Shown piece by piece: positions 7,904 to 27,743 of a stretch of DNA of 50,405 bases. The stretch is from UHGV virus genome UHGV-0192279; one strand, written 5' to 3'. Below the pieces are notes generated by a model, which was not told the DNA's origin, searched no databases, and saw nothing but the letters and a program-made list of their open reading frames with translations. The DNA comes from a virus. Position 1 is the stretch's first letter. Each line of letters starts with the position of its first letter. The translations under genes were made by a program, and so were the position numbers.

Positions 7904-8089
7904 TTAATCCTCCCGATCGTTCTCAAATGTGCCATCTACAAATTTTTGCAGCCCGGCGATAAGTTGTGTTGCCTGCGATTTTTCAATTACTATGGTTTCA
8001 GTCCCCATAAGTTCGGTTATCCACAGCCGACCATCCTCATCAAGATCTAACCTAACTCCGTAACATAACTCTGTTTCGTCAATAATCAT
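7904..8089 (-). CDS. small acidic protein (61 aa)
   Basis: AGGAGG SD upstream of ATG; preceded by palindrome GTTACGT-gcg-ACGTAAC. Confidence 0.45.
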   Translation of the reverse strand: MIIDETELCYGVRLDLDEDGRLWITELMGTETIVIEKSQATQLIAGLQKFVDGTFENDRED

Positions 8090-12306: not shown

Positions 12307-15300
12307 ATGAGTAGCGGCGGCGGTGGTAAAGCAAAAACACCAACATTAATAAACGATAACCTTTATCACAAACAGTTTTATCGTGTACTCGATATTATTT
12401 CAGAAGGGCCGATTTATGGCCCTGTCAATACAAAAGCGCCATTAAATAGCGTGATGCTTAATGACACGCCTGTTACTGACGCAAACGGAAATACAAGCGT
12501 TCATGGTGTTAGTGTGGCGTGGCGTAACGGCACGTTAGATCAATCTCCGATTAACGGTTTTAACGGCATTGAATCAACCACTATTGTTAACGCTAAGGTA
12601 ACTCACGACACGCCAATAATCAGGACTGTTTCCGATCCTAACGTAAACCGCGTTCGCCTGAATATCGGCGTGGATTCGCTTGTGCAGTCTGACGAGCAAA
12701 GCAATCAACATAACACATCCGTAATGATGGCGATTGAAGTTAAACCATCCTCATTTTCGGCATGGTCGCTGGCTAAAAGCGTAACCATCGGCCCGGGTAA
12801 GCAGAGCGGCGAATATCTCGAATCTCATGTCATTAACGCTCCAAATGAAAGACCTTTCGATATTCGCGTTCGCCGTGTAACAGCCGATAGCACAAGCGAT
12901 CTATTGCAGAATGATACGAGATGGAGTAGTTACAGCGAAATAATCGACGATAATTTGTCTTATCCTCACACCGCTGTAGCTGGCGCGGTGATTGATCATG
13001 ATCAGTACGCTGACACGCCTACCCGCACTTATCACCTGCGCGGGCTGATTGTTGATGTTCCTGATAACTATAACCCGGAAACTCGCACTTATTCCGGTTT
13101 ATGGCTTGGCGGATTCAAACAGGCATACAGTAATAACCCCGCCTGGATATTCCGCTATCTGGTTAAAAACAGGCGTTTCGGCCTTGCCCGTCATGCTGGC
13201 TATATTGACGTTGACGACGGCGCATTATATACGCTTTCTCAATACTGCGATCAGCTGGTCGATGATGGTTATGGCGGCCTTGAGCCTCGCATGACGCTTA
13301 ATGCTTACATTACGGAGCAGATGAGCGCCCGCGACTTACTGGACAATATCGCCGGGATGTTCCGAGGCATCGCGTTATGGGACGGGCAACGCCTCACCGT
13401 GATGATTGATGCACCACAAGACCCGATCGCCACCATTACAAACGCAAACGTCGTTGACGGGGCGTTCACTCGATCGAGTATCTCCCGCGCGGAATGCTAC
13501 AACGCCGTGATTGTGTCCTGGACTGACCCGGAAAACGGCTGGGAGCAATCAAAAGAGTATGTAGCAGATGATGAGCTAATCGCCCGCGATGGTTACAACG
13601 AAACCACGATGGAGGCGTTCGGCTGTACGTCACGCGGGCAAGCGCACCGCGCGGGCAAATGGCTGATAGAAACAGCAAAACGCGAGCCGTCAAAATTCAC
13701 GTTTAAAATGGCGCGTGACGCAATTCACTTTACGCCAGGGGATATAATCGAGATCCTCGACAATAACCGCGCTGGCGCTCGCTTAGGCGGTCGCATCGTG
13801 GCGAACAATGGTAAAGTGATAACGGTAGATAAGGTCGATTCAGAATATATTGCGGCTGGCGACACTATAAGTCTTCTTGATAGCGATGGAAAATTTAAAA
13901 AACATCAGATCACTGGTGTTAACGGGAACAAAATCACACTGGCAGCGGCCCCGGCATGGATTCGGAACGGGACTGTTTTTGCTGTATCAACCGAAGCAGC
14001 AAAACCCGTTTTATGCAGGATCACCAGCGTAGCCGAAACTGAAAACAACAGCGTGTACACCATCGAGGCCGCGCAGCACGACCCGAACAAACAAGCGGTA
14101 GTCGATGAAGGCGCAATATTTGAAATCAACAACGACACGCTTAATCATTTCCGCGTTCCGAACATAGAAAACCTGAAAGTAATAAACATTGCGTCAGAGA
14201 CTGTTCAATGCCGCGCTACATGGGAAACACAGACAACTACGCATCGCATGACCTTCGAGATCCGCATATACAATGCAGATGGTGCGGTGGTTAAAAGCTA
14301 TGAAACCACGAAATATAGTTATGATTTTTATGGTATTGAAGCTGGCGTGTATTCTTTAGGCGTTCGCGGAAGAAATGATACTGGCATGAAGGGTGCAGAA
14401 AGTATCGTTGACCTTGTTATCGGTGCGCCAGCAGCACCGATCGGCGTTAATTGGGTTCCCGGCGTATTTCAGGCGACCGTGTACCCGATAAGCAAAACCA
14501 CACTTACTACCGATACGTCATACGAATTCTACTATGCAGGGGAAAACCAGATCACAGATCCGGCAAAAATAACCACGTCGGCACAGTTTACCGGGCGCGG
14601 TTATCAGTGGACTTTTGGCGGCATGAACACGGGCCACACTTATTACGTTTATGTTCGCACTCGTAATGCTTTTGGTGTGTCTGATTTCGTCGAGGCATCA
14701 GGTAAGCCAACAGAGGATTTTGACGAAATCACTGATTACGTTACAAAGGATGTAATGGAATCAGAGCAATTCAAAGAGATGATTAGCGATATTAAAGATC
14801 TTGGCGATCGCACTGATATTATAGAAAGTGCGACCAACGACCTTAAATCCGCTACTGACGACCTTAAGGCAGCCACCGACGACCTTAAAGCTGACACAGA
14901 TACACTTAAAAAAGACACCGAAGACCTTTATAAAAAAGTCGAAGAAAACGCCGATGGAATAGGCAAACATGAGGTAAGAATAGACTCATTAGAGGTATCA
15001 AACGAAAACGTTAACAACGAACTGGCACAGACAAAAGCAAGTTTACAAAACGCTTCGCTTGCTCTGATCAATAACTCGCTTGCTCAAACTAACACGCGGG
15101 TTACTCTTACCGCTCAATATAAGAAAGGTCGCAACGAAACGAAGGCACAGATTGACCGCATCGACAACGTTATCGCAGAGGAGAAAAAAGCGACAGCGGA
15201 ATCACTGGAAACCATCACAGCCGAAATAAATACGATGGACTCAAACATCAAAGGAGAAATAGCCCGAGTAGACAAAGCAATGGCAACCGAAACGCAGGCG

Positions 15301-16524
15301 AGAACGGAGGCTATAAGCAACGTTAACGCCAGTATCAGCAGCCTGGAAAACAAAACTGATGCGAGCGTTTCTCGTCTCGATAAAGCAATATCAGATGAAA
15401 TGCAGGCAAGAAGCGACGCAATAACAGAGGTTAAAGCTGATTTAACAACGCTTGAAAATAGCACAAATGCCAGTGTTAGCCGCCTGGATCAAGCTATCGC
15501 TGACGAATCAAGTGCGCGCGCTCAGGCAATATCAGGTATCAGTGCGGAGCTTGGTCTTGTTGAAAATGAGGTTGATAAAAACAGCGACGAAATAGATCAG
15601 GCGAAAGCAAGTCTGCAAAACGCCTCGATTGCACTTATCAACAACTCAATAGCGCAAAGTAAAATGAGCACTGTTATTGAGGCAAAATACAGGAAAGGCC
15701 AGACAAAAACAAAAGCAGAAATAGCAAGGGTCGACACAGCAATAGCGGACGAAACCCAGGCCCGCGCGGAAGCTATAGCATCACTTGAAGCCAATATTAA
15801 TGAAAATATTTCAGCAAAAATAACAGATATATCAACGGCGCTCGCTACTCACGAGGCATCAAGTGCTGAAAAATTTGTCCAAATATCGGCATCTTTCGAC
15901 GATGTAAACTCAAGCATCACTGAATGGTCGCAGGCCATGACAACGGCGGACGAGGCATTATCAACCAAAATTGATCAGCTGAAAGTGACCGTTAACGGGA
16001 ACACAACAGCGATCGAGACAACATCGAAAGCGTTAACCGATTTCAAAGGCAACGTTGATGCGTCATATTCAATCAAGCTCGCCACCGATAACAACGGCAT
16101 GAAATACGCTACAGGTATGTCGCTTGGATTGACTGGAGACGGGACTAACTTTCAGTCACAGTGTATTTTCCTTGTTGATCGCTTTGTGTTAATGACTGCC
16201 GCAAACGGTACATATCAAACGCCTTTCTACGTTCAAAATGGCTCTTGCTATATACGCGACGCATGGATCAAAGACGCAACAATCACAAGTGCTAAGATCG
16301 CACAGCAGATACAATCATCTAACTACGCGTCAGGATCCGCAGGGTGGATGATTAATAAAGATGGTAGAGCTGAATTTAACAACGTTACCGTGAGAGGTAG
16401 TGTTATTGTTCAAGGCGGCGGAACATTTAGCATGACGAGGAGCGACGGGCGCGTAATTCTTAATAATAACGGTGTTAGAGTTAATCTGCCGAATGGTGGC
16501 GTGATAATACTTGGATACTGGTAA
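12307..16524 (+). CDS. J: host-specificity/central tail fibre protein J (1405 aa)
   Basis: Colinear similarity to lambda gpJ across N-terminal 1000 aa (SEGPI.GPV, YHLRG..., FGCTSRGQAHRAGKWL...); C-terminal part contains coiled-coil repeats. Confidence 0.95.
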   Translation: MSSGGGGKAKTPTLINDNLYHKQFYRVLDIISEGPIYGPVNTKAPLNSVMLNDTPVTDANGNTSVHGVSVAWRNGTLDQSPINGFNGIESTTIVNAKVTHDTPIIRTVSDPNVNRVRLNIGVDSLVQSDEQSNQHNTSVMMAIEVKPSSFSAWSLAKSVTIGPGKQSGEYLESHVINAPNERPFDIRVRRVTADSTSDLLQNDTRWSSYSEIIDDNLSYPHTAVAGAVIDHDQYADTPTRTYHLRGLIVDVPDNYNPETRTYSGLWLGGFKQAYSNNPAWIFRYLVKNRRFGLARHAGYIDVDDGALYTLSQYCDQLVDDGYGGLEPRMTLNAYITEQMSARDLLDNIAGMFRGIALWDGQRLTVMIDAPQDPIATITNANVVDGAFTRSSISRAECYNAVIVSWTDPENGWEQSKEYVADDELIARDGYNETTMEAFGCTSRGQAHRAGKWLIETAKREPSKFTFKMARDAIHFTPGDIIEILDNNRAGARLGGRIVANNGKVITVDKVDSEYIAAGDTISLLDSDGKFKKHQITGVNGNKITLAAAPAWIRNGTVFAVSTEAAKPVLCRITSVAETENNSVYTIEAAQHDPNKQAVVDEGAIFEINNDTLNHFRVPNIENLKVINIASETVQCRATWETQTTTHRMTFEIRIYNADGAVVKSYETTKYSYDFYGIEAGVYSLGVRGRNDTGMKGAESIVDLVIGAPAAPIGVNWVPGVFQATVYPISKTTLTTDTSYEFYYAGENQITDPAKITTSAQFTGRGYQWTFGGMNTGHTYYVYVRTRNAFGVSDFVEASGKPTEDFDEITDYVTKDVMESEQFKEMISDIKDLGDRTDIIESATNDLKSATDDLKAATDDLKADTDTLKKDTEDLYKKVEENADGIGKHEVRIDSLEVSNENVNNELAQTKASLQNASLALINNSLAQTNTRVTLTAQYKKGRNETKAQIDRIDNVIAEEKKATAESLETITAEINTMDSNIKGEIARVDKAMATETQARTEAISNVNASISSLENKTDASVSRLDKAISDEMQARSDAITEVKADLTTLENSTNASVSRLDQAIADESSARAQAISGISAELGLVENEVDKNSDEIDQAKASLQNASIALINNSIAQSKMSTVIEAKYRKGQTKTKAEIARVDTAIADETQARAEAIASLEANINENISAKITDISTALATHEASSAEKFVQISASFDDVNSSITEWSQAMTTADEALSTKIDQLKVTVNGNTTAIETTSKALTDFKGNVDASYSIKLATDNNGMKYATGMSLGLTGDGTNFQSQCIFLVDRFVLMTAANGTYQTPFYVQNGSCYIRDAWIKDATITSAKIAQQIQSSNYASGSAGWMINKDGRAEFNNVTVRGSVIVQGGGTFSMTRSDGRVILNNNGVRVNLPNGGVIILGYW

Positions 16525-22277: not shown

Positions 22278-23699
22278 TTAAAAGGATGCGTTATTCTGGT
22301 TATTTCGTGTGGAGAATCGGCTTGCTGCCGGACGTTGTTGCATTGACTGGATGCAGGCGGACGCCGCGCGAGCCTGGTTGCATGGAATGATGTTGCCGTT
22401 ATCGTCAAACCGCTGGTAAACAGTCCCCGTTTTCCCGTAACGGTTTTTTGAAACGATGATCTCCATGTATTCGCGGGCAACTGATTGTTCGTTGTAGTAG
22501 CCGTCGCGGTAGACCATGATGATCCGGTCTGCGTCTTGTTCAAGATTACCGGAATCACGCAGATCAGAATTGTTCGGGCGCTTGTTCGGTCGTTCTTCAA
22601 CGCGGCGGGATAATTGCGCCAGCGCCGCCACTGGCACGCGCAACTCTTTCGCCATCATTTTCAATGACCACGACAATTGCCCTACGGCGAGATCATGACG
22701 TTCGGCCTTAGCCAGTTTCATTAACCCGATGTAGTCAATCATCACCATTCCAAGATTAGGATGGTCCTGTTTCATCCGTTCGACGGTGGCGCGTATTTCC
22801 TCAACCGTTAACTGCGATGCGTCAACAATCCACACATCGAGATCGGCAAGGGCGCTCATCCCCCGGGCAACGTGCGCCCATCCTTCGTCATCCAGTTTTA
22901 CCGGATTACGTAGGCAATCCGTTGATAAATTCCCAGCGCCAGCGATAGCTCGTTCAGTCATCTGATCGAGCGACATTTCAAGCGTGAACAGCAAAACGCC
23001 GACCCGCTGACCTTCTCCGCCAGGGTATTGGCGTCCAGCCGCCGCGCGGGCAATTGCCAACGCCAACGCCGATTTACCAGACCCCGGGCGTCCGGCGATA
23101 AGCACCAGATCAGTAGCGTTAATGCCGCCTAACATTTCGTCGAGTGGGTCAATCCCTGTTTTGATGTTGTCAGAGTTCACGCCACACTCCATGCGTTTAC
23201 TTAGCACTTCCGTGTATTCCTGGACAGCATCGCGCAACAGCACCGGGATAATCTGATCTTTTGTTACCTTTAATTTTGAATACCGGGAATCAAAATCTTT
23301 CATCGTCTCTTTGACAACTTCAAGCGTCCCCGTTTCCAGCTTGTAGCGAACGTCTTCCATTAGCTCCAGCATTTGCCGCCGCTGGTGTTCTTCCTGTAGT
23401 AGCTGCGCGTACCCTTTCAGGTTGGCAGCAGAAGGACACGATCGCGCCGTTTGCATTAGCGGTATGAAATTTTCGTTACCGATTTCATCACCAACCAATA
23501 ACGCGTCGATAAGATTTCTGTTTCTGGCTTGCGCCCTGATGATTTCGAACGCGCGCCTGTACAGAGGAATAGTGAATACATCAGGATCGAGTGTAGCAAG
23601 AACATCTTGCGCGTTAGGAGTAAGCCCGCCTAACAGGAGGCCACCTATAACAGCCGCTTCGCGCTCCTGCCGCAATGAGTTTACTTGGTCAGTTATCAT
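22278..23699 (-). CDS. dnaB: replicative DNA helicase, DnaB family (473 aa)
   Basis: N-terminal DnaB domain plus Walker A GRPGSGKSALALAIA and conserved RecA-fold motifs. Confidence 0.9.
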   Translation of the reverse strand: MITDQVNSLRQEREAAVIGGLLLGGLTPNAQDVLATLDPDVFTIPLYRRAFEIIRAQARNRNLIDALLVGDEIGNENFIPLMQTARSCPSAANLKGYAQLLQEEHQRRQMLELMEDVRYKLETGTLEVVKETMKDFDSRYSKLKVTKDQIIPVLLRDAVQEYTEVLSKRMECGVNSDNIKTGIDPLDEMLGGINATDLVLIAGRPGSGKSALALAIARAAAGRQYPGGEGQRVGVLLFTLEMSLDQMTERAIAGAGNLSTDCLRNPVKLDDEGWAHVARGMSALADLDVWIVDASQLTVEEIRATVERMKQDHPNLGMVMIDYIGLMKLAKAERHDLAVGQLSWSLKMMAKELRVPVAALAQLSRRVEERPNKRPNNSDLRDSGNLEQDADRIIMVYRDGYYNEQSVAREYMEIIVSKNRYGKTGTVYQRFDDNGNIIPCNQARAASACIQSMQQRPAASRFSTRNNQNNASF

Positions 23700-23709
23700 T
23701 ATGGCATTA

Positions 23710-23727
23710 CCTCATGTTTACAAAATG
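23710..23727 (-). repeat. 18-bp repeat CATTTTGTAAACATGAGG (minus strand), copy 1, upstream of helicase start
   Basis: 17 of 18 nt identical to 24846-24863; contains start-stop mini-ORF ATGAGGTAA and the TACA-N3-TGGA motif. Confidence 0.6.
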
Positions 23728-25326: not shown

Positions 25327-26379
25327 TCAAAGAGCGCCAGCGCGGGTGTCGCGTAGCGTTTTTGGTTTTAGTAAGAAATCTAGTGTCGCAGTGAAGCCAT
25401 TGCCGAAGTAAAAATCTGAGGCCGTATTTTTGAACGCTTCGAAGTAGCTGATAAAGCCTTTGACGCTTTTATCTTTCAGGTAGTCAGAGAACGCATAAAT
25501 TTTACGTTCCAGATCCCGATCAAGTTCAGCAGGTGGTAACAGGCCATCAAACGTGCTGTTAAATGCTTCCACTACGTCGGCGGCGTTTACAGTAGCTGAT
25601 AGCTTGCGCCATTGTTCAGCATCAGCCAAATACCCATCAAACTTAGTTACCCGGCAAATGTTGATAGGCTTAGGTGTTCCACCACGGCTACGCCATTGCG
25701 TTAAAGCCCACTCAATCACTAATGTGATCTCATCCTCCGTATACGCTTTACGTGTTTTTGTTTCTGTCAGTAGTTCTACGAATGGCTTAGCATCACGACA
25801 TTTGCATCCTGCCTTGTCGTTGTAGAAGGCCAGGCAACGCAATGCCGCTTCGTTTACGCCATCCTGATTGACCATTTTTTGTTCATTTTCGACAATACAC
25901 GAAGTGTATATATCTTTTTCTCTTTCTTTTTCTACTTCTAATTCTAATTCATGACCCTTTCCTGACCTGGTCATGACCCGGTCATGACCTTTTTGTGTTG
26001 GATTGATTAACTTTTCTAATGTTAATTGCTCCTTCGCTGTGTTTATGGCGGCCCTGTAAGCGCTTTTAGAAGTCATTGATTGGTCCAGCCTTTTCAATAA
26101 CTTTAAACAAGTTATGTGGCCTTGAGAACATTCAAACAAACCAATTTCGATGAAGTATTTCATCATTTCTTCTATACGTTTTTCAGTAGATCCGACGTTT
26201 CGCGCAATTATTCTTGCGTCATGTCGTAGGTCAAAAGTTAGATTGTGCTGATCTACGTCATAAGTTATTAGTTCTAGGCAATACCAATAAAGCCCGTACC
26301 CTTCCAGGCCATAATCTAATAAAACGTTTTGAAGTTTTTCATCGCGGTTTGCATCGCTATCATGCTTAAACCATTTCAT
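25327..26379 (-). CDS. replication initiator / replisome organiser (350 aa)
   Basis: N-terminus MKWFKHDSDANRDEKL...EGYGLYWY resembles phage replisome-organiser N-domain; gene contains iteron array and AT-rich tract. Confidence 0.65.
   Translation of the reverse strand: MKWFKHDSDANRDEKLQNVLLDYGLEGYGLYWYCLELITYDVDQHNLTFDLRHDARIIARNVGSTEKRIEEMMKYFIEIGLFECSQGHITCLKLLKRLDQSMTSKSAYRAAINTAKEQLTLEKLINPTQKGHDRVMTRSGKGHELELEVEKEREKDIYTSCIVENEQKMVNQDGVNEAALRCLAFYNDKAGCKCRDAKPFVELLTETKTRKAYTEDEITLVIEWALTQWRSRGGTPKPINICRVTKFDGYLADAEQWRKLSATVNAADVVEAFNSTFDGLLPPAELDRDLERKIYAFSDYLKDKSVKGFISYFEAFKNTASDFYFGNGFTATLDFLLKPKTLRDTRAGAL
25949..25989. repeat. putative replication origin iterons (4 x TGACC at exact 11-bp phasing, two full GGTCATGACC palindromes)
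   Basis: TGACC at 25952, 25963, 25974, 25985; immediately 3' of a 45-bp AT-rich pyrimidine tract (25905-25948); located inside initiator gene as in lambda O/ori. Confidence 0.55.
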
Positions 26380-26382
26380 AGA

Positions 26383-26637
26383 TCATTCCTCCGGCAATGC
26401 AATGTCATAAATGTCGCCGTATTCGTCAGCGCGTTTAATGAATCCTTTGCGGATCAATGAATTTAATGCGTCAACAGTAGTATGCAGTGGCAGTTCGCAC
26501 ACTTTTGCGATCTCTTCGCGTGAAGCATGTGCGCGGCCTTTGTTGTCTGCCTTTTCTGCAAACGCAATTAAGACAAGTTTTTGGATCGGGCTGTTAAGTT
26601 TTACGTTCCATGCTTCATTCATCATGTGCATACTCAT
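26383..26637 (-). CDS. small HTH DNA-binding protein in cro position (84 aa)
   Basis: First gene of leftward operon divergent from repressor; AGGAG SD; winged-helix-like segment; could be Cro analogue or initiator-associated DNA-binding protein. Confidence 0.5.
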   Translation of the reverse strand: MSMHMMNEAWNVKLNSPIQKLVLIAFAEKADNKGRAHASREEIAKVCELPLHTTVDALNSLIRKGFIKRADEYGDIYDIALPEE

Positions 26638-27622: not shown

Positions 27623-27714
27623 GCCCTGAAAACACCAAAACGTAAACATAAAACGTGTTTTATTATTTAAATATCAATGACATATAAAATATTTAAAAAA
27701 GTATACAAAATGGA

Positions 27715-27743
27715 TTGACTCGGTGTATCACGGGGCGTATATT
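27715..27743 (+). promoter_or_regulatory. candidate early promoter (pL analogue): TTGACT -17- TATATT
   Basis: Near-consensus -35 and -10 with 17-bp spacer; TACA-N3-TGG motif abuts -35; about 40 nt upstream of boxA. Confidence 0.5.

Follow-up and report, generated by a model that had tools for sequence, protein, structure and literature searches.

Origins of replication that combine iterons with an AT-rich tract inside the gene of the initiator protein are already known as a kind. Lactococcal phages of the P335 type have such an origin, and in phage P22 (gene 18/gene 12) the O-like initiator carries the origin and is paired with a DnaB-type helicase of the phage, with no loader for the host DnaB. 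The origin of phage lambda contains four 18-bp iterons and a 38-bp AT-rich sequence inside gene O (PMC3349717; PMC7466680). In phage SPP1, oriL lies in gene 38 and consists of direct repeats together with an AT-rich unwinding element, with the gene of a DnaB-family helicase downstream (gp38, gp39, gp40) (PMC6316719). Here a stretch of 50,405 bp from the virus genome UHGV-0192279, called the window below, was examined for an origin of this kind. The window belongs to the mEp021 or 'mEpimmI' group of temperate coliphages. Judged from its sequence, the segment 25895-25989, placed inside the phage's own initiator gene, is with a probability of roughly 80% the vegetative (theta-type) replication origin of this phage.

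The helicase arrangement at this locus is like that of P22, the initiator of which has an unrelated DNA-binding domain and unrelated iterons. As in lambda, the gene is transcribed from an early promoter beside the immunity region, and the putative origin is found in the middle of the initiator gene, where, along the direction of transcription, four iterons come first and an AT-rich tract of ~40 bp comes next (PMC3349717, PMC7466680). Unlike lambda, the DNA-binding domain is a DUF4373 domain and not Phage_rep_O, the iterons abut one another as 11-bp units whose palindromic core is 6 bp long, in place of 18-19-bp units about two turns apart, and the phage has its own DnaB-type helicase while no P-type helicase loader gene was recognised among its genes. 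Iterons of the lambda O kind, 18-19 bp long with internal symmetry and spacers, were not found here, and those of the relatives mEp021 and mEp554 are ~22 bp long. The likeness to oriL of SPP1 lies in the position within the gene of the origin-binding protein and in the phage DnaB-family helicase gene downstream (PMC6316719). SPP1, a Bacillus phage, differs in its second origin, oriR, in its dedicated loader, gp39, and in its protein families and host. Iteron plasmids with a winged-helix Rep protein (RepA_N, PDB 4pta) differ in that their iterons are usually 17-22 bp long and lie outside the rep gene, and their Rep proteins have no detectable sequence homology to the initiator described here.

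The mEpimmI coliphages are reported to be prevalent in the human gut, and the paper on the group mentions no origin or iterons (PMC11893012). No description of this origin was found in literature on DUF4373, Lin1244 or mEp021. As far as the searchable literature shows, the use of DUF4373 in this role would be new, as would contiguous iterons that are very short, one turn long and have a palindromic hexamer as their core, and a degeneracy of every third copy imposed by a stop codon. The original prediction of a lambda-like origin inside the initiator gene is supported by sequence evidence of several sorts, namely the O-like gene, a module swap, a family-wide architecture and selection on the nucleotides themselves.

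The initiator gene, the iteron array and the AT-rich tract

The original prediction had placed four TGACC iterons at exact 11-bp phasing in the initiator gene. TGACC does start at 25952, 25963, 25974 and 25985 on the + strand, with a spacing of exactly 11 bp. An exact-pattern search for TGACC-N6-TGACC-N6-TGACC found this site as the sole match in the window and gave 0 matches in 100 dinucleotide-preserving shuffles, which excludes a chance origin of the repeat. On the coding (-) strand the array forms four contiguous 11-bp units, 25946-25989, within the open reading frame (ORF) 25327-26379 (Table 1), so that helically phased direct repeats, of which at least three were looked for, are present inside the initiator's own coding sequence (CDS). 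A general repeat finder and Tandem Repeats Finder (TRF) caught the array only partly, as a 22-nt pair and as 2.5 copies of an 11-mer.

The first two copies contain the perfect 10-bp palindrome GGTCATGACC (at 25980-25989 and 25969-25978), and to this extent the two full palindromic copies of the original prediction stand. However, neither this palindrome nor TGACC is the recognised core. The first copy reads GGTCATGATA in the closest relatives, MagusPhagus and mEp515, the second is unchanged across three close relatives, and sequence comparison identifies the hexamer TCATGA (consensus A-R-TCATG-A/C) as the conserved core. The hexamer is not enriched over the whole window, with 19 occurrences found and 13.4 expected, and the phased cluster alone is unusual.

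The AT-rich tract that had been claimed directly beside the iterons, with a length of 45 bp, was observed at nearly that length (Table 1). Purines make up 80% of its coding strand and pyrimidines 80% of its + strand, and it consists of units of six, which read GAATTA GAATTA GAAGTA GAAAAA GAAAGA GAAAAA GATATA on the coding strand; TRF reported periods of 6 and 12. Among the 40-mers of the window, the core of the tract (25907-25946) ranks fifth in instability (z = 3.1), and the iterons are thus adjoined by an easily melted AT-rich tract of the kind present in lambda and SPP1. In all the homologous loci that were inspected, the iterons are likewise followed by an A/G-rich AT tract.

The gene itself is a candidate for a two-domain, O-like initiator. 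Its product matched Pfam PF14297, Lin1244_N (DUF4373), at aa 3-87 with 43.4 bits (cut-off 25; E 5.9e-11) and is therefore a member of that family. The whole protein matched PHROG 345, 'replication initiation O-like' (2.4e-19), and the C-half matched PHROG 428, 'replication initiation protein' (7e-21), as well as PHROG 1347. Besides Lin1244_N, no Pfam family matched the initiator at E <= 0.01 and Phage_rep_O was not among the matches, so that the protein falls outside the lambda O family and is connected with it only by the broad PHROG 345. The C-half gave no Pfam or NCBIfam match, including Phg_2220_C (DnaD-like, PF09524); a weak pairwise BLASTP match (E 0.005), from a single comparison, was obtained with the Phg_2220_C domain of Vibrio phage vB_VpP_1. 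An AlphaFold2 model was made from a 104-sequence alignment of the initiator. The N-domain was modelled with confidence, the predicted local distance difference test score (pLDDT) being ~80-96 over aa 11-120, and the C-half was helical with moderate confidence, whereas aa 131-170 had a pLDDT of only ~28-31. The iterons and the AT tract hence encode what the model predicts to be a disordered linker.

Table 1. Coordinates, in the window, of the putative origin, the parts of the initiator gene and the phage helicase gene.
Feature	Position	Strand	Remarks
Initiator gene, 350 aa	25327..26379	-	DUF4373 N-domain, predicted disordered linker and O-like C-half
Winged-helix N-domain, coding part (aa 1-125)	26005..26379	-	presumed iteron reader
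Predicted disordered linker, coding part (aa 127-170)	25870..26001	-	holds the iterons and the AT tract
Iteron 1	25979..25989	-	GGTCATGACCg; TCATGA in frame 2, GGT CAT GAC = G H D
Iteron 2	25968..25978	-	GGTCATGACCa; frame 1, GTC ATG ACC = V M T
Iteron 3, degenerate	25957..25967	-	GGTCAGGAAAg; frame 0, where TCATGA would be Ser-stop
Iteron 4	25946..25956	-	GGTCATGAATt; frame 2, GGT CAT GAA = G H E
AT-rich tract	25905..25950	-	presumed DNA-unwinding element; 46 bp, 78% A+T
Small palindrome	25895..25909	.	ATACAC-gaa-GTGTAT, ATACACgaaGTGTAT; distal edge of the AT tract
C-half, coding part (aa 172-350)	25330..25866	-	presumed helicase-recruiting module
DnaB-type replicative helicase gene	22278..23699	-	presumed client of the origin complex

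Cassette exchange and the presumed reader of the iterons

The initiator gene of the window is 96% identical to that of MagusPhagus and 92% identical to that of mEp515. The DNA of mEp554, mEp010, mEp044 and mEp021 matches the C-half of the gene only, with ~90% identity, and the match ends at query positions 522-558 (25848-25884 in the window), just past the AT tract. The N-domain of these four phages is of the HTH_36 family. Three types of initiator gene were distinguished within the group. Type A (the window, MagusPhagus and mEp515) has the DUF4373 domain and four copies of GGTCATGA at 11 bp. Type B, found among IMG/VR sequences (L045, L046; P0018, P0020, P0021, P0026), has a DUF4373 variant and five copies of A-R-CCATG-G at 11-bp spacing. 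Type C (mEp021 and mEp554) has an HTH_36 N-domain and four iterons of ~22 bp with two specificities, GGTAGTGGCAnAnAGCAACC in mEp021 and GGTAGTGTCAGAGAGACACC in mEp554, at the equivalent position. All three types run from the iterons through the AT tract into the same C-half. On sequence comparison, at least three alternative cassettes, each made up of a DNA-binding domain and its repeats, are combined with one common C-domain. In lambdoid O/ori modules the N-terminal part and the iterons are exchangeable together and the C-terminal part is common; by analogy, the swap of cassettes in the mEp021 group is the same pattern.

The type C origins resemble the putative origin of the window in their position in the gene, their C-half and the AT-rich stretch downstream of the iterons, with mEp021 also having the same ATACACTTCGTGTAT palindrome. 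They differ in their HTH_36 domain and in their iterons, which are roughly double the length and show dyad symmetry internally. The small palindrome ATACACgaaGTGTAT is kept in types A, B and C1 (mEp021) and not in C2 (mEp554). It is reminiscent of an inverted repeat that lambda has on the right side of its AT-rich region. It is also situated near the recombination boundary between the variable and the common halves of the gene.

The association of domain and repeat was also observed outside the coliphages. Six phages were compared, Vibrio PP270, XM1, vB_VpP_1 and 1.236.O, Pantoea PdC23 and Pseudoalteromonas BS5, in which the N-domains are ~73-76% identical to that of the window's protein and the C-halves and neighbouring genes are unrelated. 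Directly after the domain all six have 2-5 RTCATGA units at 11-bp spacing and then an A/G-rich AT tract (GATAAGAATAGA...). A survey of 40 non-identical IMG/VR loci, with N-domains 68-83% identical, gave a TCATG density of 21.7/kb at CDS nt 330-450 as against 1.04/kb elsewhere, and the consensus was again A-R-TCATG-A/C. Of the 67 spacings between neighbouring TCATG copies, 39 measured 11 bp, 18 measured 21-22 bp and 5 measured 32 bp. Since the C-halves and the neighbouring genes vary between these phages, the N-domain alone accompanies the iterons throughout.

More distant members of the family showed that the repeat changes with the domain. Divergent members at 52-54% identity (L092, L094) retain TCATGA. 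N-domains ending in ...RLDxSMTSN pair with TCATGA arrays (L092, L095-L098, L101-L103), and those ending in ...R(T/A)D(D/E)YTxK pair with repeats of the (G)TCC(C/G)GACA type at 10-11 bp (L093, L099, L100, L104-L107), of which L107 has ~11 copies. A third class, seen in L108, has a 21-bp unit, TTCGGAGAAnTCCGAAtCTAC, in three copies. A purine-rich AT tract follows in all three classes. Among 145 cluster representatives (50% identity), the peptide footprint HDxVM of the TCATGA array was present in 85 of the 102 'SMT' proteins and in 0 of the 27 'DxYT' proteins, and ~10 of the 17 'SMT' exceptions have an endonuclease-domain insertion that shifts the iterons further downstream. The iterons thus co-vary with the DNA-binding domain of the initiator, both between types A, B and C and between the TCATGA and TCCGACA classes, with the caveat that very few N-domain residues distinguish type A from type B. 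The N-domain family comprises 2,477 clusters (50% identity) at E <= 1e-3 and 206 at E <= 1e-30.

The endonuclease insertion, a T5orf172/GIY-YIG-like domain (GYVYFIEKR...KIGRSKNP), was found repeatedly and exactly between the DUF4373 N-domain and the iterons, with a frequency of ~10 in the 145 representatives. It is in frame in L075 (1801-2240), where the TCATG iterons and the AT tract come after it, and is a separate ORF in L091 (2866-2904), a contig that ends too near the gene to show iterons; further carriers are P0127, P0242, P0251, P0253, P0256, P0271, P0275, P0278, P0284 and P0385. Possibly it is a homing element with the junction of domain and origin as its target. Two further arrangements were seen. 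In a Vibrio metagenome-assembled genome (L095:1540-1640), TCATGA lies inside a perfect 21-bp tandem repeat, ggtgTCATGAcgtctgctgac, present in three copies at two-turn spacing and followed by a fourth copy and the AT tract. In L093 (2852-2993) the DUF4373 protein, of 116 aa, stands alone and the repeats are intergenic: two copies of TGTTCGGACA at a distance of 11 bp and a purine tract, (GAACA)n, lie between the DUF4373 gene and genes for a DEAD-box helicase and a primase. The origin module hence seems able to exist outside coding sequence as well.

These comparisons point to the DUF4373 domain as the reader of the iterons, an assignment which is also probable, if held with somewhat less confidence than that of the origin itself. 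The locus could be an origin whose iterons are read instead by the adjacent 84-aa HTH_36 protein (26383-26637, - strand) or by a host factor, the DUF4373 domain then having some other task. The 84-aa protein is a winged-helix/HTH_36 protein and a paralogue, with 34% identity, of the iteron-side N-domain of type C; it matches PHROGs named 'replication initiation protein', and it differs between phages of the DUF4373 type and of the HTH_36 type. However, one type B phage (L045) has no gene for it, there being only ~300 bp between the repressor and initiator genes, and mEp021 and mEp554 have an identical small HTH_36 protein yet different iterons. The TCATGA arrays persist in the Vibrio, Pantoea and Pseudoalteromonas phages, where an unrelated gene (repressor-like, KilA-N or antirepressor) lies upstream. 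A host factor as the reader is opposed by the lack of any DnaA box near the site, the nearest one in the window being at 8017. Reading of the iterons by either of these is therefore considered unlikely.

The array could also be a regulatory element, either an operator array that autoregulates the early operon or an antisense intrinsic terminator made from the palindromic copies and a T-run on the + strand. Initiators often autoregulate through their iterons, and a terminator scan flagged GGTCATGACCcGGTCATGACC followed by TTTTTGTGTT on the + strand (25969-25999). Nevertheless, a Rho-independent terminator is not indicated on that strand: the hairpin and the T-run are present, but no + strand gene ends there and the hairpin is not conserved, the first copy being changed in the closest relatives as described above and the marine arrays being AT-rich with weak stems. 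Neither an operator nor a terminator would explain why the AT tract is obligatory, why the site is within the initiator gene or why it is swapped with origins that have four 22-bp iterons. A regulatory element is thus, if by little, more unlikely still, and the reading of 25895-25989 as an origin recognised by the DUF4373 domain is preferred.

Reading frames, nucleotide-level selection and a proposed mechanism

As 11 is not a multiple of three, successive copies of the iteron are read in different frames (Table 1). The third copy in the window, GGTCAGGA, which reads TCA GGA, and its counterparts elsewhere are degenerate because TCATGA in frame 0 encodes Ser followed by a stop. The survey agreed with this. 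TCATG was found in frame 2 in 42 cases, in frame 1 in 57 and in frame 0 in 4, the last always as TCATGC, and TCATGA in frame 0 did not occur among the in-phase positions of the 40 loci. The motif was lacking at 28 in-phase positions; 22 of them fell in frame 0, with TCAGAA, TCAGGA or TCTGAT in its place. In one protein of E. coli type (P0241, with the linker ...GHDEVMAGSCQGHDRVMTGSWQGHELE...), the peptide footprint implies a 33-nt duplication of three iterons and ~7 iterons in total; its frame-0 copies, as read from the peptide, would be TCATGC or TCATGG (Cys or Trp) and not a stop.

The codons of the linker gave a second measure. CAT was the His codon in 61 of 65 cases in the linker, as against 92 of 173 in the remainder of the ORFs (Fisher p = 4e-10). 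A Val that precedes Met was GTC in 53 of 55 cases as against 66 of 465 elsewhere (Fisher p = 2e-36), and Ile before Met was ATC in 16 of 16 as against 166 of 690 (Fisher p = 2e-10); these p-values are optimistic since the loci are related, though the effect sizes are large. The fixed synonymous codons and the reading in several frames imply that the peptide H-D-x-V-M-T is the footprint of the DNA motif and not the reverse. By this comparison of codons and frames, the repeat is selected at the nucleotide level and not at the amino-acid level. The converse explanation, that the protein needs a conserved peptide motif (HDxVMT...GHE) and that the DNA periodicity is a by-product, can point to the conservation of H-D-x-V-M-T in many homologues and to its recurrence in some with an 11-aa (33-nt) period, but it is very improbable given that successive DNA copies encode unrelated peptides (G-H-D, V-M-T, S-G-K), that third codon positions are fixed against local codon usage, that the copy in frame 0 is degenerate at just the point where the motif would make a stop, that the linker carrying the motif is predicted to be disordered and that variant lineages swap the motif for other DNA repeats at the same period.

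For an origin read by the DUF4373 domain, the following scheme of binding, stoichiometry, unwinding, helicase recruitment and transcriptional activation may be inferred. Early leftward transcription from the immunity region would lead to expression of the 350-aa initiator. Its N-terminal winged-helix DUF4373 domain would then bind the four iterons, three of them with a strong TCATGA and one weakened, either as monomers on one face of the helix or as dimers bridging adjacent half-sites. Because the spacing of 11 bp is one helical turn, all sites would lie on the same face and a compact nucleoprotein complex is possible. The strain of this complex would open the adjacent AT-rich tract with its asymmetry of purines and pyrimidines, the conserved C-half would recruit the DnaB-type helicase that the phage encodes, and next would come the replisome of the host. 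Transcription helps to activate the origin of lambda (PMC7466680), and by analogy the origin described here may be activated in part by transcription that starts at the early promoter and passes through the gene.

It appears fairly probable that the scheme extends to the family, i.e. that DUF4373 (Lin1244_N) is a large family of phage replication initiators whose origins are arrays of short iterons, one turn apart, in the DNA encoding a disordered linker. The frame-0 copy would be forced to degenerate, subfamilies of the N-domain would have co-evolved with their iterons (TCATGA, CCATGG, TCCGACA and the 21-bp unit), and homing-endonuclease inserts would be found at the boundary. The assignments made here would give a Pfam domain of unknown function a concrete function, namely origin binding, with a predicted recognition sequence, and would locate the so far undescribed origin of the mEpimmI coliphages. 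Origins in many marine and enteric phages could also be sought by a simple rule, the signature being phased short repeats and then an A/G-rich AT tract just after DUF4373. Types A, B and C, built on a common C-domain, would be natural specificity variants for the study of how initiators recognise iterons, of origin incompatibility and of the way plasmid-borne origins interfere with growth of the phage. In the degeneracy of every third iteron, driven by the stop codon, the coding sequence and a cis-acting DNA element appear to constrain each other. If true, the origin would visibly have been shaped by the overlap of a DNA code with a protein code.

Gene neighbourhood and minor observations

Upstream of the initiator gene are the gene of the 84-aa HTH_36 protein and then a divergent gene for a CI/LexA-type repressor. 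Downstream are a 62-aa helix-turn-helix ORF, the gene of a 377-aa exonuclease-like protein and the gene of the DnaB-type helicase. The helicase (Table 1) matched Pfam DnaB_C at 8.8e-75, the DnaB N-domain at 7.9e-12 and PHROG 19; it is the third substantial ORF after the initiator, in agreement with the original prediction, which had put a DnaB-type helicase three genes downstream. Promoter-like sites found by a promoter scan were no more numerous than in shuffled sequences. The cumulative GC-skew minimum lies at 25-27 kb and was not counted as evidence because gene orientation flips at ~26.7-26.9 kb.

An HNH homing-endonuclease gene lies between the exonuclease-like and DnaB genes in mEp515 (L002:1234-1788) and mEp021 (L003:480-983). 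It is missing from the window, where the interval is 23699-23718, and from MagusPhagus and mEp554.

Elsewhere in the window, a 21-bp tandem repeat of 4.6 copies was found at 14833-14928. It was rejected as an origin since it lies within the gene of a 1405-aa J-like tail protein (12307-16524, + strand); it is a coding repeat, TDDLKAATDDLKADTDTLKKDTEDL, with a coiled-coil-like character. The least stable 40- and 60-bp segments of the window are at 27628-27727 (z ~4), in the intergenic DNA just downstream of the CI-type repressor gene, where no repeats were detected. This segment is probably a promoter or terminator region.

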